IMG/VR virus record: IMGVR_UViG_2778261708_000017
From: a virus
Lineage: Duplodnaviria; Heunggongvirae; Uroviricota; Caudoviricetes
Strand: one strand, 5' to 3'
Length of the DNA stretch: 8,669 nucleotides
A program made the translations under genes and the position numbers. Each line of letters starts with the position of its first letter. Position 1 is the stretch's first letter. The notes below the pieces were generated by a model. It was not told the origin of the DNA and did no database searches. It saw only the letters and a program-made list of their open reading frames with translations. Of this stretch, positions 1-8,669 are shown piece after piece.

Positions 1-73
1 CGCCCTGACTTTCCAGAACCATACGGACTGCCCGTTGACGGACCTCGGGGGAAAAACGTGTATTTTTAGTCAT
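1..73 (-). CDS. IS3-family transposase OrfA, N-terminal part (partial; gene continues upstream of the window)
   Basis: ATG at 73-71 on the - strand, with a GAGG Shine-Dalgarno about 10 nt upstream. Translation is MTKNTRFSPEVRQRAVRMVLESQG..., running off the window edge. Confidence 0.75.
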   Translation of the reverse strand, partial: MTKNTRFSPEVRQRAVRMVLESQG

Positions 74-127
74 CCTGTTTACCTCTTTCTCAGGGAGTTT
101 AGTCTCCAGGATTCCCGGGGCGGTTCA
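1..127 (-). mobile_element. IS3-family insertion sequence (IS629/IS1203/IS3411-like), left-end portion, copy A; continues beyond the window start
   Basis: The reverse complement of 1-127 reads TGAACCGCCCCGGGAATCCTGGAGACTAAACTCCCTGAGAAAGAGGTAAACAGG then ATG ACT AAA AAT ACA CGT (MTKNTRFSPEVRQRAVRMVLESQG), which I recognise as the terminal inverted repeat and orfA start of IS629-type elements (from memory). The same about 127 bp recurs in the opposite orientation at 8543-8669 with about 9 mismatches counted by eye. The element boundary (TG...) falls at 127. Confidence 0.8.
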
Positions 128-660
128 ATCTGCTGGCCGGAACTAATGAATTTATTGGTGAAGGTGACGCATACATTCCGCCTCATACAGGTCTGCCAGC
201 AAACAGTACCGATATTGCACCGCCAGATATTCCGGCTGGCTTCGTGGCTGTTTTCAACAGTAATGAGGCATCGTGGCATCTCGTTGAAGATCATCGGGGT
301 AAAACGGTTTATGACGTGGCTTCCGGCGACGCGTTATTTATTTCTGAACTCGGTCCGTTACCGGAAAATGTTACCTGGTTGTCGCCGGATGGAGAGTGTC
401 AGAAGTGGAACGGCACATCCTGGGCGAAAGATGCAGAAGCAGAAAAACTGTTTCGGGTACGGGAGGCAGAAGAAACAAAAAACAGCCTGATGCAGGTAGC
501 CAGTGAGCATATTGCGCCACTTCAGGATGCCGTAGATTTGGATATTGCGACGGAGGAAGAGGCATCGTTACTGGCTGCATGGAAGACATATCGGGTATTG
601 TTGAATCGTGTTGATACAACAGTAGCAGCGGATGTTGAGTGGCCAGTCGCCCCACAATAA
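128..660 (+). pseudogene. Phage tail fibre assembly protein (Tfa / P2 gpG family), 5'-truncated by the IS insertion at 127
   Basis: Frame 1 is open from the IS boundary to TAA at 658-660 and translates [63 protein letters not shown]...[20 protein letters not shown], typical of enterobacterial Tfa proteins. There is no ATG between the IS end and the GTG at 244, and homologues carry about 10 more N-terminal residues, so the native start was removed. The ORF-track entry 244..660 is the internal GTG-initiated part. Confidence 0.8.
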
Positions 661-666
661 AAAGAA

Positions 667-696
667 AAAGCCATCGACAGAAATATCGATGGCTTT
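667..696. terminator. Putative bidirectional Rho-independent terminator between the convergent tfa and acetyltransferase genes
   Basis: Perfect 8-bp stem GCCATCGA (670-677) / TCGATGGC (686-693) with an 8-nt loop, extendable by three A-T pairs. On the - strand it is followed by TTTTTCTTTTT, giving a strong terminator 10 bp after the acetyltransferase stop at 704. On the + strand it is followed by TTTATGT, a weaker U-tract after the tfa stop. Confidence 0.6.
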
Positions 697-703
697 ATGT
701 ACT

Positions 704-1276
704 CTATTTATACAATACAACACCACTCTTTTTAGTTATATATGTGCAGTTTGATGGTATATCTTTATTTATAAAAGACATTGCACCTATTTTTACATTA
801 TCCCCAATTTTACGTGATAATCCAATGATGCAACAATTAGCTCCGATATCAACGTTACTACCAATTTTTACTCTTGAACTAGGCATATCACCATCTATCT
901 GTCCAATGGTAGTATTCTGTCGTAATACCAGATTTTCACCCGCATCAACAGCAAAATGAACAACAATTCCAGCATGATGGGGAATTGTCAACCCTTTTCC
1001 AATATTTGCGCCCAATCCTATTTCACAACCAAACTTGTTAATTATTTTACTGTTTAACTTTTTGGCTGCTTTCTTATGTAATTTATTACCATTAATATAC
1101 ATTTCGTTAGCCAACCGCCACCAGAAAAGGAAATTCCGGTTACGCTGTTTTTTCTCTCTTAAAAGCCTCCAGATATCCATACGTTTCCGCCGAATTACTT
1201 CATGTTTCCAGAAGTTTTTTAAATTAGTAGAGTTTCCAAATAAAACAAAGTGAATTGCCATTAAGTAAGATAGCAC
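704..1276 (-). CDS. Hexapeptide-repeat (left-handed beta-helix) acetyltransferase, CysE/WcaB-like; AT-rich cargo (moron) gene
   Basis: The ORF 704..1309 translation contains tandem hexapeptide motifs (FGCEIGLGANIGKGLTIPHHAGIVVHFAVDAGENLVLRQNTTIGQIDGD...KIGSNVDIGANCCIIGLSRKIGDNVKIGAMSFI) resembling serine/colanic-acid O-acetyltransferases. The region is visibly AT-rich (roughly 30% G+C by eye) against GC-rich phage genes. AAGGAG lies at 1288-1283, 6 nt before GTG at 1276, so I prefer that start; the frame is open to 1309 and an ATG lies at 1261. Stop is TAG at 706-704. Confidence 0.75.
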   Translation of the reverse strand: MLSYLMAIHFVLFGNSTNLKNFWKHEVIRRKRMDIWRLLREKKQRNRNFLFWWRLANEMYINGNKLHKKAAKKLNSKIINKFGCEIGLGANIGKGLTIPHHAGIVVHFAVDAGENLVLRQNTTIGQIDGDMPSSRVKIGSNVDIGANCCIIGLSRKIGDNVKIGAMSFINKDIPSNCTYITKKSGVVLYK

Positions 1277-1327
1277 GATAATCTCCTTAATTATTATTTC
1301 AGACCACACATGTTATAAGGTTAAGAG

Positions 1328-1356
1328 ATTATAAAATCCTGTTATTTGTTATTCAA
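1328..1356 (-). promoter_or_regulatory. Putative sigma70 promoter for the acetyltransferase gene
   Basis: On the - strand: -35 TTGAAT (1356-1351), a 17-bp spacer, and a consensus -10 TATAAT (1333-1328), about 40-50 nt upstream of the AAGGAG/GTG start. Identified by eye only. Confidence 0.45.
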
Positions 1357-1432
1357 AAACAATTTTCTGAGAAGGACATACAACAGCAAGTCGCCAGTCA
1401 CCTTCATCAGGAAATTGGCGACATACGTTAAA

Positions 1433-1927
1433 TCAGAGCAGCCCCTTAACTGAGCTGGCCGCGCTATTAAGGGATGATGTCACCTTATCTTTGAAGCCGG
1501 ACAGCATATCGCTGAACGATGAGGATTGCAGGCGCTCCCGCAAATCCTCATCACAGCGTTCAAGAGTCAGTGAAAATTCTATCTTTTTCGCCTTACCGTA
1601 GCGATCAAACTCGGAGCGGGTCGTATTCGTTCCGGTCAGGACATACATGCCGTAAATCTGCCCGACGCCATCAATCAAAGGCCAAGGACGTCCTGTATAT
1701 GCCTGCGTGGTCAACAACGACAGCGACACTTCGCCACCAGTAATCTCAGGATAAAGAACACCAGAAAGAACGATGCGATCATCACCTGCACCGATATACT
1801 GCCAGCTTGCTGAACGGTTAACGCGTTCATTTTTCACATGTCGCCAGCTTTTGTTTTGCTGTAACTGCTGATGCGGCAACGTGCGCAGCTCAAAAACAAA
1901 CATGCCGTAGATCATCATCATGGCCAT
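1433..1927 (-). CDS. Phage tail protein, P2 gpU family
   Basis: Translation MAMMMIYGMFVFELRTLPHQQ...VLSGVLYPEITGGEVSLSLL...WPLIDGVGQIYGMYVLTGTNTTRSEF matches the gpU pattern and sits directly downstream of the tape-measure gene as in P2. GAGGAG at 1935-1930 is best spaced for the ATG at 1921, so the true start may be 1921 rather than 1927. Confidence 0.8.
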   Translation of the reverse strand: MAMMMIYGMFVFELRTLPHQQLQQNKSWRHVKNERVNRSASWQYIGAGDDRIVLSGVLYPEITGGEVSLSLLTTQAYTGRPWPLIDGVGQIYGMYVLTGTNTTRSEFDRYGKAKKIEFSLTLERCDEDLRERLQSSSFSDMLSGFKDKVTSSLNSAASSVKGLL

Positions 1928-1933
1928 GACTCC

Positions 1934-4773
1934 TCAATCTTTATCGTAAAAACTGCCACGCCTGGCACGGGCGCGCCGTTCCATTTCTGCCCTGACCATT
2001 TCGCCGACCAGTTTCGCCAGTTCGCGGGGATTCTGCGTAACAACGTTATGCAGATGAACATGAATTTCACCGCCAAATCCGGAGGCAACAGGCTCCCGGT
2101 TACGGGAAGTTGCAGGAACTGATGCCACTGGCGATCGTATGGCCTCCACCACCGGGCGGGAGCTGGCCGCAACAACAGGGACCAGCGCCGGAGGCAGCGG
2201 AGCCGGGACCACGGGTGTGATATTAATTGCGGGGGCAGGCTTACTGACCTGCGCAATCTTCCGCTCCTGCCACTCCCCACGAACAGCAAGTGCGCGGGGC
2301 AGGTTCTTAAAGACAATATCGCCGGGGCCAATGCGTTTTTTTGTCTCATCAACCAGCTTACCTGTGTTATCAGCAATTTTGCTGAGTCTGCGTAGCGTGC
2401 CGGTATTGCTGTCTGTGAGAGGTTTGTTGTCTTTGGGTTTATCATCTCCGGTGCCATTGCTATTTCCCGCAGACTTCGGCGGATTGATTTTCGCAATGTC
2501 TCCCTGAAACAGAGCAACCTTGTCCTGAAGAATGGCCGCACGTTGTGCGTCTTCGATTTTCTTGCGCGCCCTTTCCGCTTCATCCGGAAGCACACCGAGT
2601 TTTTCAAGTATCCACGCCAGCGTATCCAGCAACATTTTTGCAGGCGTCAGAACAAGCTGTAACGCACCACCAAGAACGTTACCGAATACCTCGCCAGCAC
2701 TGGTACATTTATCCAGCGTTTCCTTGCTGGACTCCATCGGTGACAGCAGCGATTTAAACCAGTTAAACACCTGGCTGAACCGCTTCCGATTACGTCAAAA
2801 ACAGGGCCAAACCGTTCAAAGGTGTCGCGCAACGGGGTCAGCCTTTCCATAATCCCGCTGAACACCCCGGCAAAGAAAGCCCTGATAGGATCCCAGTATT
2901 TCCAGATAAGAACGGCAGCTCCGGCAAGCGCAGCCACGATAAGACCAACCGGACTGAACAACGCCCCGATAACGCCTCCCAGTAAAGAAACGGAACCCGT
3001 CACCATTCCCCATAGCGCAGGTAACACCCTGACGACATTCATTGACCGGGTAAGAATGTCAAAACCAAGACGCAGGGTGGCCAGCTTCCCGTAAAGCACC
3101 CCAATAACCAGCGACAACGAGCCAATCGTTGCAGTCATTGCCAGCAACGCACCGCCTGCTATCAGTAGCTGGCGCGTCAGTACCGGATGGGCCTGCGCCA
3201 GCGAGGTGATTTTTTCAAGCACCCGCGTGAGCCACTGCGTGACAGAACGCAGCGGACCGTCAACCAGATCACTGATGCGAATACGAAGACCTTCCCATGC
3301 GCTGTCGAGATTTTTCAGGTCCCCATCAAGATTATCAGCCATTACTTTTGCGACGCGATCGGCCTCTCCCCTTGCCCCCTGCAATTCTCTGGTCAGTTTT
3401 TGCAGCTCTCCTGAACCAGCCGCCGCAACAAGCGTCTGCAAACCAACGAACGCCTCTTCTCCGGCGATGTCCTTGAAGAAGGAGACCTGGTCCACCTGTC
3501 CGTATTTTTGTGTCGCCTTATAGAGATCAAGCAGCACATCCTCCATCGGGCGCATTTTGCCTCTGGCCTCAGCAACTGACACCCCCAGCTCTTTCAGTGC
3601 ATCAGCCGCAGCTTTTGGCGGTGATGCAAGGCGGGACAGACTTGCGCGCATGGCCGTGCCAGCATCGCTTCCGCGAAGACCATTATTGGCAAGCATCCCG
3701 GCCATGGCCGCCGCTTCTTCAAGACTGATACCAAGTTTTGCGGCAACCGGACCGGTATACTTCATGGTTTCGCCCAGCGCGCGTAAATCAGTATTGGTCC
3801 GGGTAAATGCTGCTGTCAGCGTATCGCCCACCCGGTCCATTTGATCGGCTGTCAGGTTGAACTGTGTGAGGATATTGGAGCCTATATCAGCCGTCTCGCC
3901 GAGTTCGACGCCACCTGCCAGCGCCATATTAAGAACACCGGGCAATGCGGCCTGAATGGCCTGCGGAGTAAAACCAGCCATTGCCAGAAAGCTCTGCCCA
4001 CTGGCGGCATCACTCGCAGTAAACTGTGTTTCAGCAAGTTTTAACGCCTGCTCACGCAGCGCCTTAAACTGCGGGCTGTTTTTGTCGATTCGCGTCAGTG
4101 CCTGAACGCGGGACATCTCTTTGCCGAACCCGATCGCAGGCTGCAAAAAACGCCCGGCAGCATAGCCGCCCGCCGCTGCCGCACCAATTGCCAGCGCACC
4201 ACCTGTTTTCAGTTTTCCCGCGGTTTCCTGCGCGTGCGAATACCGCTCACGCGCCTGCGTTACACGCGCAAGCGCCTGCCGTTCGCGTTCAAGCTGGTTG
4301 TTGTATTGTTCGGTGCGTCTGATGGCCTGCTGAATGGTGTTATCGCTGCCTGTCAGGGAAATGCCGTGGCGTTTCAGCTCTCCGCCAAGTTCCCTCATTT
4401 TCTGAATTTCCCGTGTGCGCGATTCATTCAGGCGTTCAAGCCGGGTGCTTAACTGCTGCATCAGCTTTTGTTGTTTTTCGCTGAGCACTGTACCCGTGCG
4501 TTGTAACTGATTAAGGGCGTTAAGCTGGCGTCGTGCTTTCACGATGCCAGCATCCGCTTTACTGACAGCGTCGCGGGCGCGCTCAAATGATCGCGCCTGA
4601 CGCTCGAGATTTTTGATCGCCCCCTGCGTTCGCTGGATGGAGTCACCAAACTGCCCCATCAGGCGGCGTGCGTTTTCGGCAGGTCGGGTCAGCCTGTCAA
4701 CGGCGCTGAAAGCGACCCGGATATCAAGAGTCTTCATTGTCTGCATTCCCGCTGCGAAGTGCCGCCCGCTCAC
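1934..4773 (-). pseudogene. Phage tail tape measure protein (P2 gpT-like), interrupted by a frameshift near 2770-2794
   Basis: Two overlapping - strand ORFs in different frames (2647..4773 and 1934..2770). The upstream one has coiled-coil-like and glycine/alanine-rich hydrophobic segments typical of tape measure proteins, then degenerates into a low-complexity tail after ...FERFGPVFDVIGSG. The downstream one (…GEIHVHLHNVVTQNPRELAKLVGEMVRAEMERRARA...) reads like a tape-measure C-terminus. A 1-nt indel around 2777-2781 would fuse them into one protein of about 940 aa. The start is uncertain (GTG 4773, ATG 4746 or 4737). Confidence 0.75.
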
Positions 4774-5253
4774 GCCAGCTAACCACTTCGCCGGGCGTCA
4801 TCATGAAGATTTCGGCGGGCGACCAGTTAAAAATAACGGCAATATCTGCCACAAAGTCTTCTATGTGCTCAAAGCACACAACCGTGATCAGGCTTCCGTC
4901 GCCTGTTCGTTCTTCCCGCCAGAGTCCGCACCGCTCAAAAAATTTACGGCAACCACACATAACTGAATAAAGTCACGGGATGCCATTTTTTTGATCGTCA
5001 CTTCATCCAGTCGCGGTGATGTCACGCGTGACAGCAGCGTAAACATGGATTCCGCTTTCAGATTCAGCACATCAGACAGCGACAAATCTCGCAGAGATCC
5101 AGCCTGCTCAATAGCCCCGGTGATCTCCACATACGTGATTTTTTCGCCGCCTCGCTCAATTGGTTGGGTAAGTTTTACACCACGCTCACTGGTTTCTTTC
5201 ACAGTGTCAGTAACTACCGTGTTTTCGGTATCGATGTTTTTCGTCTCTTTCAT
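4724..5253 (-). CDS. gpE+E' fusion product made by programmed -1 ribosomal frameshift (P2 E/E' type)
   Basis: The -1 frame ORF (ORF-track 4724..4960) overlaps the 3' end of gpE. Reading from the heptamer in the -1 frame reproduces its translation (...ERCGLWREERTGDGSLITVVCFEHIEDFVADIAVIFNWSPAEIFMMTPGEVVSWRERAALRSGNADNEDS). This mirrors the conserved tail chaperone frameshift of P2-like phages. Confidence 0.7.
4888..5253 (-). CDS. Phage tail assembly chaperone, P2 gpE family
   Basis: ATG at 5253 preceded by AAAGGAG. Translation ...LRDLSLSDVLNLKAESMFTLLSRVTSPRLDEVTIKKM... matches the gpE family. It lies between the tube and tape-measure genes as in P2 and contains the slippery heptamer near its 3' end. 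Confidence 0.8.
   Translation of the reverse strand: MKETKNIDTENTVVTDTVKETSERGVKLTQPIERGGEKITYVEITGAIEQAGSLRDLSLSDVLNLKAESMFTLLSRVTSPRLDEVTIKKMASRDFIQLCVVAVNFLSGADSGGKNEQATEA
4936..4942 (-). promoter_or_regulatory. Slippery heptamer T-TTT-TTG for the programmed -1 frameshift producing gpE+E'
   Basis: The - strand reads GTA AAT TTT TTG AGC in the gpE frame; the + strand shows CAAAAAA at 4936-4942. It is positioned 15 codons before the gpE stop, where the -1 frame ORF is open. Confidence 0.65.
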
Positions 5254-5307
5254 CAGGAAACTCCTTTCAGTCAGAGGCGACGCACTGCGCCGCCTGCATA
5301 TTACTTA

Positions 5308-5820
5308 TCAGCCAAGCCCAAGCGCGGAACGGATGCGATCGGGCACAATGTCCTTGCCGTCCTTCCGGTAAATGAAGTTCAGCAGGTCAATCTCCCACAA
5401 CGGGCGATCGTTAACACTCAGCTTGTAGTAGGTGTTTTTAATGGCGTAAGTGTGTGATGTGGCTTCGCCCTGTTTGGCTTCCCCCATATCAATTTCCGTC
5501 ACACGTCCGCGCATTTCGACTTCATACAGGTCGCTTTCATCATCGGTGTAGTATTCCCCCGCAAAACGCAGTAGCGTGCCGTCAATCGTGCCGCCATACT
5601 TCAGGAACAGCTCACGAACTGCGCCCCCCATGACAAAGCTCGCATCAAGCGCGGAGTCGTCCAGGCCGAGGTCAATACTTACCGCACCCATCATGCCACC
5701 ACCCCGGTAGCTGTCGGTTTTGCGCGTCAGTTTAGGCAGGGTGACGGACGTCACCTTACCCACTTCGTTTTCACCATCCACAAACAGCGTAAAAAAGCGA
5801 AGATGTTTTGGTACAGCCAT
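5308..5820 (-). CDS. Phage major tail tube protein, P2 gpFII family
   Basis: Translation MAVPKHLRFFTLFVDGENEVGKVTSVTLPKLTRKTDSYRGGGMMGAVSIDLGLDD...LLRFAGEY... resembles P2 FII. The ATG at 5820-5818 overlaps the sheath stop by one base (TGATG on the - strand), with GGAGGT 5 nt upstream, indicating translational coupling. Confidence 0.9.
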   Translation of the reverse strand: MAVPKHLRFFTLFVDGENEVGKVTSVTLPKLTRKTDSYRGGGMMGAVSIDLGLDDSALDASFVMGGAVRELFLKYGGTIDGTLLRFAGEYYTDDESDLYEVEMRGRVTEIDMGEAKQGEATSHTYAIKNTYYKLSVNDRPLWEIDLLNFIYRKDGKDIVPDRIRSALGLG

Positions 5821-7004
5821 CAGGCACCTCCCAGCACCGCAAATGCGGGACCAAAGAATTCATCAGTAAACGACTGGTAAAGCTCCATGTCTTCCAGCGG
5901 AGGAACGGGCGTATATTTGTAGCGAATACGCACACGCCCCTGACGTAAATTCGTGGTGCTGTTATCCTCGATGTCATACCAGCACTCCGCGCCAATCAGT
6001 TTCCCGGCAGTAACCAGTGAATCCAGTTTTGCCCTGATGGCACTGATAACATCCTTCACGTTCGCAGGTGTCAGTGGACTGTCGATGGTTTCAAACTGCG
6101 CTTCCGCAATTGAATCAGCCAGCACCTGTGCGGTTCGGGTATACACCTCAAAGATGTAGGCGTTCGTTTCCGGTGTGCGGTTGCCCCAGAAGCGGAACCC
6201 GTTGCGACGAATAATGGTCGTGATTTCTTTGTTGTTGAGGCTGTTGGCATCACTGTCTTCGGCCTGCAACGACCAGAACACATGCCTCGACATCCCAAGC
6301 ACATTTTTAACCGGAACGTTGGACAGCGATTTGTGCCAGCCCTGCTCATGGTCAATGTACGCACGAAGGCCGCACGCATAAGCAGGCGCGGGGAACGTTT
6401 CGTTTTTGCCACTTTTCAGGTTGTAGGCGATGAAGTCAGGCCATAAGAGCATCACCTCACGTTCGTTGAATTTCTGGCGGTAGGTAATCGCCTCAGCCAT
6501 CGTGTTACAACCATGACATGTGGCATACACAAACGCGCGCAGTTTACCCGCAATCACGCACAGGGATTTTGTTACCGCCTCCGTGTCCAGCTCCGGCGCG
6601 GCCAGAATACGCGGACGGTATCCGATGCTTTCATCCTGCTCTGCAACAAGCAGCGCATACATCCCCGTATAGCTGCCGTCAGATTCAGAACCACCGATAA
6701 CCAGTTGATCCTGCGTCTTACCGCCTTCTTCTTTGTGTTCAGCCACGCGAACGACGATCACTTTTGTGCTCACCTGGTCTGCGATAGCCTTAAGCGCACG
6801 ATAAAGCGTCCCCGTAGTCCCGCATTTTCCCAGCACGTCATTGACGCGGGTCAGCAGTGTGGGCTTGTTCAGCGGGAACAGCTCCGCGTCCGCATCATCT
6901 GCCGTTGCCACGATACCGATAACACTGGAATCAACATCATTAATCGCTGTTACCAGGTCGGTACTTTCCGTAACACGGGCACCATGAAAACGAGTTTCAC
7001 TCAT
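5820..7004 (-). CDS. Phage contractile tail sheath protein, P2 gpFI family
   Basis: The 394-aa translation carries blocks recalled from P2 FI (PLNKP, LRAFVYA, WPDF, GWHKSLSNV, IRRNGFRFWGNRT, YTRTAQVLAD, YTPVPPLE). ATG at 7004 is preceded by AAGGGG. Confidence 0.9.
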   Translation of the reverse strand: MSETRFHGARVTESTDLVTAINDVDSSVIGIVATADDADAELFPLNKPTLLTRVNDVLGKCGTTGTLYRALKAIADQVSTKVIVVRVAEHKEEGGKTQDQLVIGGSESDGSYTGMYALLVAEQDESIGYRPRILAAPELDTEAVTKSLCVIAGKLRAFVYATCHGCNTMAEAITYRQKFNEREVMLLWPDFIAYNLKSGKNETFPAPAYACGLRAYIDHEQGWHKSLSNVPVKNVLGMSRHVFWSLQAEDSDANSLNNKEITTIIRRNGFRFWGNRTPETNAYIFEVYTRTAQVLADSIAEAQFETIDSPLTPANVKDVISAIRAKLDSLVTAGKLIGAECWYDIEDNSTTNLRQGRVRIRYKYTPVPPLEDMELYQSFTDEFFGPAFAVLGGA

Positions 7005-7161
7005 AGCTTCAGCCCCTTGTATCCGTTAAATGATTCGGCAACAATCATCACCCACCACTCGCGTAATCTCACCCCTGCGCCGTTCTCCCGCCACGGCGAC
7101 AACAAAAAGCAGTAACCCCCTCCGCACGCACATGCGACCATGCCGCACAGGGAGGGAACAG

Positions 7162-7428
7162 ATGACCGACACCACCATGCAATTGCTCAGTCAGGGCACA
7201 GACCACGTGAAAGTGCCGGATTTTGATATTCTCGCGGAGGGTAAAACGCTGTCAGGCGTGGCAGAGCGCCTGATGAGCCTGTCACTGACCGACAACCGGG
7301 GATTTGAGGCGGACCAGCTCACCATCACGCTGGATGATGCAGATGGTCAGTTGCAGCTACCGCCACGGGGCGCGCGCCTGACGGTTCTCATTGGCTGGAA
7401 AGGAGAACCGCTGACAGAAAAAGGCACT
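7162..7428 (+). pseudogene. Phage late/tail protein D (P2 gpD family), 5' fragment truncated by the IS30 insertion
   Basis: ATG at 7162 preceded by GGAGGG (7151-7156). Translation MTDTTMQLLSQGTDHVKVPDFDILAEGKTLSGVAERLMSLSLTDNRGFEADQLTITLDDADGQLQLPPRGARLTVLIGWKGEPLTEKGT matches the gpD N-terminus (SLTLTDNRGFEADQL...LGW.G). The reading frame runs straight into the IS30 terminal repeat at 7429. Confidence 0.8.
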
Positions 7429-8542
7429 TGTAGATTCAATCTGTCAATGCAACACCCCTTTCAATTATCTCTTTCGGTGTTTTGAACTTCAGTGTCTTTC
7501 TCGGTCTGTTGTTTAGCTGAGCAGCAACCAGATCTAGTTCATGTTGAGTATATTGGGCAAGACATGTCTTTTTAGGAAAGTACTGCCGAATTAGCCCATT
7601 TGTGTTCTCATTTGTTCCCCGCTGCCAAGGACTCTGAGGATCGCAGAAGTAAACTTTAACGCCGGTGCTGACAGTAAATTCTAGATGTCTGGCCAGTTCC
7701 ATTCCTCTGTCCCATGTCAGTGATTTTCTGAGTTCTGACGGTAAACTCAGGAATTTGTCGGTAAGAGCCTGATTTACTGAGACAGAATCTTTGCCCCTGA
7801 GTCTGAGGATGATCGTATAACGTGATTTTCGGTCTACAAGTGTGGCTATATGAGAGTTTTTTGTACCTGAGACTAAATCGCCCTCCCAATGCCCTAGAGA
7901 GCGTCTGTTATCGATATTTCGGGAACGTTCGTGAATTGGTGTTCCGTTCACTATGTTAATCGTACCTCTTTCGCCTTTGCGGGTATGACGCCTGCCATGG
8001 CGAAGGCTATGCGACCGTCGCAGATGCTGTATATTCAGGTGGTGTAGCGCTTCACGGCTACGAAAGTACAGCGTTTTATAAATTGTCTCAGGTGATATTC
8101 GCAGCGTTTTTTGACGTGGTTTTGTTCGCCTTAACCATCCTGATATTTGCTCTGGAGACCATTTCATCTCCAGCTTTTCCAGAACAAGCTTTCGCAATGG
8201 TAAATTTTGATCCAGTAAGCACGGTTTTGGCCTTTTCGCCATTCTGTTGGCTCGGTTATTAGCATCAACAGCTTTGTAATAGCGTCTGCCCCGATTACGC
8301 TGAACTTCACGTGAGATCGTCGAAGGACTGCGATTCAGCGCAGTAGCTATCGCACGAATGCTCATTTTGGCTGACAAACCAGCTCGTATCTCCTCGCGCT
8401 CAGACAGTGTCAGGTGAGCTACAGCCCGCTTACGCTCATGGGGTTTTATGCCGCCAGTATCCCTTAACATAGTGAAGATCGTTCCGGGTTTTGAACCCAG
8501 GATATTCGCTATTTCACTGAAGCCTGTTCCGTTCTTCCATAG
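7429..8542 (-). mobile_element. IS30 insertion sequence, inserted in gpD and itself truncated or interrupted at its transposase-proximal end by an IS629-like element
   Basis: A terminal inverted repeat TGTAGATTCAATCTGTCAATGCAACA begins at 7429. The - strand ORF encodes the IS30 transposase ending ...KTPKEIIERGVALTD. The IS30-like sequence stops abruptly at 8542, where the IS3-family repeat TGAACCGCC... begins, so about 100 bp of the element (first about 15 codons plus the other repeat) is absent from this side. Confidence 0.85.
7436..8542 (-). pseudogene. insI: IS30 transposase, 5'-disrupted by the IS629-like insertion
   Basis: Translation from the internal Met (ORF-track 7436..8470) is MLRDTGGIKPHERKRAVAHLTLSEREEIRAGLSAKMSIRAIATALNRSPSTISREVQRNRG..., which I recognise as the IS30 transposase (from memory). 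The frame continues upstream through ...LWKNGTGFSEIANILGSKPGTIFT to the junction at 8542 without reaching the native start. Confidence 0.85.
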
Positions 8543-8669
8543 TGAACCGCCCCGGAAATCCTGGAGACTAAACTCCCTGAGAAAGAGGTAAACAGGATGA
8601 CTAAAAATACTCGTTTTTCCCCCGAAGTCCGTCAGCGGGCGATTCGTATGGTTCTGGAAAGTCAGGATG
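8543..8669 (+). mobile_element. IS3-family insertion sequence (IS629/IS1203/IS3411-like), left-end portion, copy B; continues beyond the window end
   Basis: TGAACCGCCCCGGAAATCCTGGAGACTAAACTCCCTGAGAAAGAGGTAAACAGG then ATG ACT AAA AAT ACT CGT. It is about 93% identical by eye to the reverse complement of 1-127, so this is a related but diverged copy in inverted orientation. Confidence 0.8.
8597..8669 (+). CDS. IS3-family transposase OrfA, N-terminal part (partial; runs off the window end)
   Basis: ATG at 8597 with GAGG about 10 nt upstream. Translation is MTKNTRFSPEVRQRAIRMVLESQD... Confidence 0.75.
   Translation, partial: MTKNTRFSPEVRQRAIRMVLESQD

Follow-up and report, generated by a model that had tools for sequence, protein, structure and literature searches.

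Phage P2 carries its tail genes FI, FII, E, E', T, U and D on one strand, as a single F operon driven by promoter pF. The stretch of DNA analysed here (IMG/VR record IMGVR_UViG_2778261708_000017, 8,669 nucleotides, hereafter the window) departs from this order, since D lies on the strand opposite to FI-U, back to back with FI, and a tail-fibre assembly gene (tfa) faces the end of U. The locus thus raises the question of whether the sheath-to-gpU block was inverted in this particular genome, as a first-pass annotation of the window had proposed, or whether it has always been arranged in this way in the phage type concerned. Our analysis favours the second answer. We estimate at about 0.95 the probability that the window belongs to Sp13, a defective P2-like prophage, and has the native order of P88-type phages, derived from an ancient flip of the FI-U operon, with no inversion in this genome.

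Genes in the window were called from a listing of open reading frames together with Pfam and PHROG scans, and the boundaries of insertion sequences (IS) were set by sequence comparison and a repeat search. These analyses revealed a P2-like (Peduoviridae) contractile-tail module with homologues of FI, FII, T, U and D that are 33-59% identical to the P2 proteins (tblastn against P2: FI 45%, FII 44%, E 32%, T 33% and U 46% identity). The module consists of the following features.

1433-1927, minus strand: gpU, end gene of the flipped operon (PF06995, E = 1.5e-38; 99% amino acid identity to P88 gpU, 46% to P2 gpU)
1934-4737, minus strand: tape measure gene T (PF10145), two open reading frames through a frameshift; a pseudogene
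4724-4960, minus strand: tail chaperone E', overlapping E (48% identity to P2 E')
4888-5253, minus strand: tail chaperone E (PHROG pair phrog_103/phrog_1756 for E and E'; 32% identity to P2 E)
5308-5820, minus strand: tail tube FII (PF04985, E = 1e-47; 99% identity to P88, 44% to P2)
5820-7004, minus strand: tail sheath FI, which opens the flipped operon (PF04984, PF22671, PF17482; 97% identity to P88, 45% to P2)
7005-7161, no strand: divergent FI-D spacer, a putative two-way late promoter
7162-7428, plus strand, with homology to 7429: N-terminus of gpD (phrog_52, phrog_4456; 98% identity to P88 gpD residues 1-89, 59% to P2 gpD)

The module is homologous to the P2 F operon (32-59% amino acid identity) and keeps both its internal FI-to-U order and its E/E' site, the slippery heptamer TTTTTTG of the P2-type -1 frameshift, located at 4936-4942 (minus strand) within the E/E' overlap. 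D closes this operon in P2, whereas in the window it is a separate divergent unit and FI-U is reversed; the starts of FI (7004) and D (7162) are 158 bp apart. The layout described in the first-pass annotation (FI-FII-E-T-U on the minus strand, gpD on the plus strand and divergent at 158 bp, tfa past U) was found in every feature. Comparison with P2 by tblastn and by its annotation, where FI-FII-E-T-U-D share one strand, confirmed that FI-to-U is flipped with respect to both D and tfa. The breakpoints also fall where they had been placed, one between the fibre/cargo slot and U and the other between FI and D.

The same arrangement was found in phages much closer to the window than P2. In a megablast of the window against the phage collection, and in local BLAST, positions 1427-7429 matched as one collinear piece, with 91-97% identity, in P88, 500465-2, PhiR44_2, 520873, 503458, P884B11, PhiSM and Chuche. 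In the deposited annotations, the genes of P88 and 500465-2 run H+, G+, (G'-, H'-, invertase+), U-, T-, E'-, E-, FII-, FI-, D+, and P88 (Xuanwuvirus P88, NC_026014), PhiSM, P884B11, PhiR44_2, 500465-2/Gemsvirus and Chuche are like the window in the orientation of U, T, E', E, FII and FI versus D. The length of the FI-D spacer is also shared, being 157-158 bp in P88 and its close relatives. P88 is a plaque-forming, mitomycin-inducible phage (PMC5285337), and PhiSM is an active phage of Citrobacter rodentium (PMC6456863). According to the first-pass annotation, functional phages with this divergent D/FI arrangement would refute an inversion in this genome, and P88 and PhiSM have the identical layout. 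There are differences between P88 and the window outside the shared block. P88 has an invertible fibre segment and an invertase between tfa and U, where the window has an acetyltransferase gene. In addition, P88 is complete and functional, whereas the copy in the window is without head, lysis, baseplate and fibre-H genes and without ogr, its T gene is frameshifted and its D gene is truncated.

An Escherichia coli O26 prophage (strain RM8426) extends this collinearity to the acetyltransferase side. Window positions 127-7429 aligned to it in one high-scoring segment pair of 7328 columns with 92.4% identity. This prophage, located next to ihfA/pheT, is apparently complete, with a full replication, head, lysis and baseplate gene set followed by H and tfa (+), the acetyltransferase (-), U to FI (-) and a D gene (+) that is intact; a PIN-domain gene, ogr and hok come after it. 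To count the FI/D junction, an 830-bp stretch comprising the FI start, the spacer and the D start was used as query, with matches counted at a coverage of at least 80%. The junction was present in 1357 of 5426 complete E. coli genomes, including UTI89, ST131, O26, O145 and O104:H21, and in 13 phage records, and the whole window was covered in 495 complete genomes. The window has FI-U divergent from D and convergent with the fibre/cargo region, is collinear with P88-type phages across both junctions, and carries a sheath gene of the P88 clade.

These data bear on two explanations that place the event in this genome or in its assembly. The first is a recent inversion of FI-to-U in this prophage or in the O157 lineage, through illegitimate or short-repeat recombination at 1310-1432 and 7005-7161. 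It would account for the reversal relative to P2, since flipping the block restores the P2 order, and the two junction intervals do share an 8-mer, CGTTAAAT, at 1426 and 7024. This 8-mer is in direct orientation, and a direct match of at least 8 nt was obtained in 167 of 1000 shuffles of the junction intervals, so that it is at chance level. Moreover, the junctions recur base for base in functional phages, in the O26 prophage, which occupies a different chromosomal site, and in one of every four complete E. coli genomes, and the arrangement reaches other genera, down to 54-58% sheath identity. We therefore consider a recent inversion extremely improbable. The second explanation, an assembly artefact, could in principle draw on the repeated IS copies nearby, which might mislead an assembler. 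The IS copies lie away from the junctions, however, and the junctions recur in the 495 and 1357 complete genomes mentioned above and in independently sequenced phages, which leaves hardly any room for misassembly; nor does the idea of an event that needs junction repeats or a recombinase hold. The inversion proposed in the first-pass annotation stands as a flip of the FI-to-U operon with respect to P2, with its breakpoints and cargo slot, and falls as an event in this genome.

To determine how far the divergent order extends, two surveys were carried out with the sheath as alignment query, one of viral contigs (IMG/VR) and one of loci from one genome per species, keeping the best 80 matches in each; FI, FII, U, D, J and the invertase were placed by tblastn. 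FI and D were divergent in 65 of the viral contigs and on the same strand in 9, and D was not found in 6; the corresponding numbers in the one-genome-per-species set were 23, 50 and 7. Taken together, the surveys gave 88 loci with a P88-type sheath, every one of them divergent, and 59 with a P2-type sheath, every one of them in the P2 order; sheath clade and arrangement thus agreed in 147 of 147 loci. Divergent loci came, among others, from Salmonella, Citrobacter, Edwardsiella, Enterobacter, Klebsiella, Kosakonia, Trabulsiella, Mixta, Izhakiella, Erwinia, Pantoea stewartii, Symbiopectobacterium and Pectobacterium, the most distant of them with the 54-58% sheath identity to the window given above. 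Since the arrangement tracks the sheath type throughout the surveys, the flip is an old, fixed trait of the clade. The outgroup loci from Burkholderia, Paraburkholderia and Trinickia all had the P2 order, which suggests that this order is the older one.

One assembly in the surveys, labelled Vagococcus sp. WN89Y (loci L087 and L139), contained two tail loci, one of P2 type and one of P88 type with 97% identity to its E. coli counterpart. Vagococcus is Gram-positive, and this looks like enterobacterial contamination.

The position of the invertase gene indicates which segment was turned. Where an invertase is carried, relatives with the P2 order have it immediately upstream of FI, and those of the P88 type have it beside the U end; therefore only the FI-U operon flipped. 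We propose that in the P88-type branch (Peduoviridae: Xuanwuvirus, Gemsvirus and relatives) exactly the FI-FII-E/E'-T-U operon was inverted once, long ago, and then fixed, and that the fibre genes, the cargo slot that follows them, gpD and ogr retained the P2 orientation through the flip. Turning only this operon leaves the starts of FI and D back to back, with a spacer of about 157-185 bp, and makes the U end face the fibre/cargo region. The position of ogr after D is common to P2 and to intact P88-type relatives. The gene order of the window is thus already known, being standard in a widespread, sequenced and annotated branch of P2-like phages. P2 is not the sole template for P2-like prophages; a reversed FI-U block with D divergent from it marks the P88-type branch, which is very common and occurs in one of every four complete E. 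coli genomes, and a locus with this layout should be annotated neither as rearranged nor as misassembled.

The presence of an invertase gene in P88-type phages, often at the left breakpoint by the U end, also raises the possibility that FI-to-U is a programmed invertible segment, turned by a Gin/Cin/Pin-type enzyme like the neighbouring fibre segment of P88. Several observations argue against it. The relatives' invertase serves the G'/H' fibre segment, and that slot holds no invertase in this prophage (in the window and in the 40-kb region L001 described below) or in the O26 one. A single orientation was found in the 88 P88-type loci and in the 1357 E. coli genomes, and flipping the block would part FI from its promoter region. 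Flanking inverted repeats were not found: the longest inverted match between the junctions was 7 nt, equalled in 480 of 1000 shuffles, in agreement with the first-pass annotation, which had seen no convincing ones. Searches for crossover-site repeats at the junctions gave chance-level matches only. Programmed inversion can be given practically no credence. The homology to invertase-carrying P88-type phages starts at 1427, six bases past the U stop, with the boundary at 1426/1427 in every phage match; this boundary is merely the edge of the cargo slot.

The absence of IS elements at the inferred junctions, also pointed out in the first-pass annotation, was verified, with IS sequences present only at 1-127, 7430-8543 and 8543-8669. 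The sole substantial inverted repeat of the window is 129 nt long and consists of IS629-type ends at 4-132 and 8538-8666, both outside the FI-U block. An inversion mediated by these ends was considered and rejected, since it would flip 127-8543 as a whole and its ends do not coincide with ~1427 and ~7005-7161; in addition, the orientation of tfa versus parM is as in the intact O26 prophage.

The region to the left of U contains the following features.

130-660, plus strand: tail-fibre assembly gene tfa (gpG / lambda Tfa family), N-terminally truncated (PF02413, E = 5e-40; phrog_105)
667-696, no strand: hairpin with a 13-bp stem where tfa and the acetyltransferase gene converge, resembling a terminator on the minus strand (terminator scan)
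704-1276, minus strand: hexapeptide acetyltransferase with a left-handed beta-helix (Hexapep match; phrog_2154, a family with no function assigned)
1277-1426, no strand: AT-rich cargo-associated spacer, with a sigma-70-like promoter at 1356-1328 (minus strand) toward the acetyltransferase, 10/12 matches (promoter scan)

A further explanation regards the locus as a patchwork, in which tfa and the acetyltransferase came from a lambdoid or other prophage and were joined by deletion to an unrelated P2-like tail block. In its favour, the tfa gene by itself shares 90-92% identity with its lambdoid counterparts (tfaQ/tfaR, HK630, mEp332), and the tfa-acetyltransferase pair is also found in the unrelated large phages JL22 and Ro157c2YLVW. 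On the other hand, the P88-type O26 prophage has H, tfa, acetyltransferase and U collinear with the window, and the same arrangement appeared in viral contigs L012, L014 and L050, and in L043, with 71% amino acid identity. The orientation of tfa relative to parM and the partition genes is the same in Sp13 and in the O26 prophage, and a simple internal deletion therefore suffices. Phages commonly swap fibre modules, and the likeness to lambdoid tfa is a result of this and not of a junction made in this genome. A patchwork origin is accordingly very unlikely, and the related alternative raised in the first-pass annotation, that the tfa-acetyltransferase segment and the D fragment come from unrelated elements, is contradicted by the O26 prophage, in which H, tfa, the acetyltransferase, U to FI, D and ogr all belong to one element collinear with window positions 127-7429.

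With the native P88-type order as the preferred reading, the question arises of how D is expressed apart from the F operon, and the FI-D spacer offers a candidate answer. Alignment of 13 diverse FI-D spacers revealed conserved islands amid divergent sequence. A dyad T[GC]T-N12-ACA was present in 73 of 75 distinct spacers; its half-sites are conserved and its 12 central bases are variable, a combination that suggests a dimer-binding site. The motif TGT-N12-ACA is the consensus for P2 Ogr, on which P2 late promoters depend, and in phage Smp131 PP' and PO' share one such site (PMC3931495). An exact TGT-N12-ACA had no match in the window, where the dyad reads TCT-N12-ACA (7084-7101) and was seen only with one mismatch allowed and by comparing relatives; the exact form occurs in the FI-D spacers of more distant relatives (loci L104, L067 and L070). 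Two -10-like elements flank the dyad. To the left, at 44-49 bp, lies a conserved nAnnAT (GATGAT, 7049-7044, minus strand) directed toward FI, and to the right, also at 44-49 bp, a TGn-nAnnnT (TGcGACCAT, 7133-7141, plus strand) directed toward D. The predicted transcription starts, about 7037 for FI and about 7148 for D, are separated by 111 bp, and the dyad centre lies about 55 bp from either one.

This predicted geometry matches that of the divergent pP/pO pair of P2, which also has a central dyad, -10-like elements some 48 bp away on each side and starts about 111 bp apart; the P2 record places the start of pP at 3016 and that of pO at 3127, and between them a single activator site (3057-3087) that serves both. 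The genes served are different, since pP and pO drive the portal/terminase and scaffold operons and the spacer of the window would drive FI and D. In P88 and in the O26 prophage, the sequence GTTCT-N12-ACAACAAAAGC occurs both in the FI-D spacer and in the divergent portal/scaffold spacer. Ogr homologues with 38-42% identity to P2 Ogr are encoded after D in P88, 500465-2 and the O26 prophage.

We propose that in intact relatives the FI-D spacer would act as a two-way, Ogr-dependent late promoter with one shared activator site about 55 bp from each start, which would give D, and ogr behind it, a late transcript of their own. Extending this model, we consider it roughly an even bet that the spacer is a shared-site two-way promoter copying the portal/scaffold pair, that it made the flip viable, and that the orphan copy in Sp13 could answer an Ogr/Delta-like protein of prophage Sp2. 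The predicted promoter is only a mildly new point; if true, it would explain the expression of D after the flip.

Two further observations were made on these regions. A second motif, CCC(C/T)TTGTATC, is common to the FI/D spacer (window 7005-7030) and the portal/scaffold spacer (P88 6645-6665). In the RefSeq record of P88, the unannotated segment 26883-27140 after D encodes an 86-amino-acid zinc-finger protein of the Ogr/Delta type, with 99% identity to the product of the ogr gene annotated in the O26 prophage and 42% to P2 Ogr.

Some points weigh against our interpretation of the locus. The surveys consisted of the best 80 matches each, and rare exceptions to the link between sheath type and gene order may have been missed. 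No paper explicitly describing a flip at the level of the clade was found in the literature library searched, so that calling the order known rests on deposited annotations. The promoter model is a prediction from sequence, and the E. coli members of the P88 type, compared with P2, carry TCT instead of TGT in one half-site. One match to the dyad pattern falls within the P88 T gene, and by chance alone about 1.4 matches would be expected per 28 kb.

The chromosomal context identifies the element to which the window belongs. In E. coli O157:H7 TX 265-1 (region L001, 40 kb), it lies between yecA and tRNA-Leu/Cys/Gly-pgsA-uvrC, and comprises an integrase gene, early genes, a replication endonuclease gene and parM/partition genes, followed by a partial IS3-family transposase gene, as annotated by the Prokaryotic Genome Annotation Pipeline (PGAP), and then by tfa. 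This element is prophage Sp13 of strain Sakai, called CP-933T in strain EDL933. Three of its features, two of them at the right end of the window, derive from IS elements.

1-127, minus strand: end fragment of an IS3-family element, IS629/IS1203-like (positions 4-127 94% identical to the IS1203 end, in reverse orientation)
7430-8543, minus strand: IS30, with terminal sequence TGTAGATTC at 7430 and transposase domains HTH_38 and rve
8543-8669, plus strand: left end of IS1203/IS629 inside IS30, 100% identical to the IS1203 end in O157:H7 TX 265-1 (L001)

Sp13 of E. coli O157:H7 Sakai has been described as a P2-like prophage without most morphogenetic genes that still excises, replicates and is packaged with the help of other prophages (PMC2669165). 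Relative to the O26 prophage, the O157 element lacks the whole stretch between the partition genes and a point inside tfa, and the orientation is unchanged. A deletion next to the IS3-family fragment removed the head, lysis, baseplate and fibre-H genes together with the start of tfa. The remaining tfa encodes 176 amino acids, versus 192 in the full-length gene that comes after fibre gene H in the O26 prophage, and the two products have 95% amino acid identity. Against the 2808-bp T genes of P88 and the O26 prophage, the T gene of the window lacks 1 nt near 2782, which causes the frameshift also called by PGAP, and 3 nt near 4035, a loss that keeps the frame. IS30 cuts D off after codon 89; position 7429 is the last with homology to any of the relatives, and PGAP annotates an incomplete late control D family protein. 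No ogr homologue was found in the 40-kb Sp13 region. In strain Sakai, an ogr homologue is located on the P4-like prophage Sp2, and a P4 epsilon-like gene on Sp13 (PMC2669165). Since ogr is gone from Sp13 and a homologue is present on Sp2, late expression of the orphan FI-U operon would need to be driven in trans.

The IS30 copy that truncates D is itself interrupted by IS1203/IS629 at 8543, 60 bp from the far IS30 end. In TX 265-1 and other top matches, IS1203 lies about 415 bp into the same IS30 copy, unlike in the window. None of the 5426 complete E. coli genomes contained the IS30/IS1203 junction of the window in one piece, and the source strain therefore has a different IS629 position.

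Regarding the cargo slot, the G+C content of the acetyltransferase gene is 32-37%, versus 50-58% in the tail genes. Its best NCBIfam matches were EpsC, CysE and WcaB, all below cut-offs, and a PADLOC scan with defence-system models gave no match. The same gene occupies the same slot in the O26 prophage and in several IMG/VR contigs, one of them from a relative whose amino acid identity is no more than 71%, and it is also located upstream of FI in a Pectobacterium prophage of P2 order. This recurrence in the same slot across relatives indicates that the position after the fibre genes is a cargo site, as Z/fun in P2, and supports the placement of the acetyltransferase at the P2 G/FI moron site in the first-pass annotation. 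The slot contains either an invertible fibre segment with an invertase or an acetyltransferase. Like the P2 Z/fun slot between G and FI, that of the window holds a foreign, low-G+C gene on the opposite strand after the fibre-assembly gene, with a promoter-like site and a terminator hairpin. It differs from it in that the cargo is an acetyltransferase and in that its other neighbour is U instead of FI, owing to the flip.

Several minor observations concern the same slot and its surroundings. A 7-bp inverted repeat (GTCGCCA...TGGCGAC) with a 19-nt loop is located at 1390-1422, past the U stop and inside the cargo-specific spacer; it is not a clear terminator because it has no T-run. The PIN-domain gene between D and ogr in O26 RM8426 (L005, 28382-29884) marks a second cargo position, at which P88 has nothing. 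Finally, the tfa-acetyltransferase pair (window 127-1275) was found as one piece, with 91-93% identity, in the unrelated phages JL22 (99.6 kb) and vB_EcoM-Ro157c2YLVW (80.7 kb); the pair travels as a unit.

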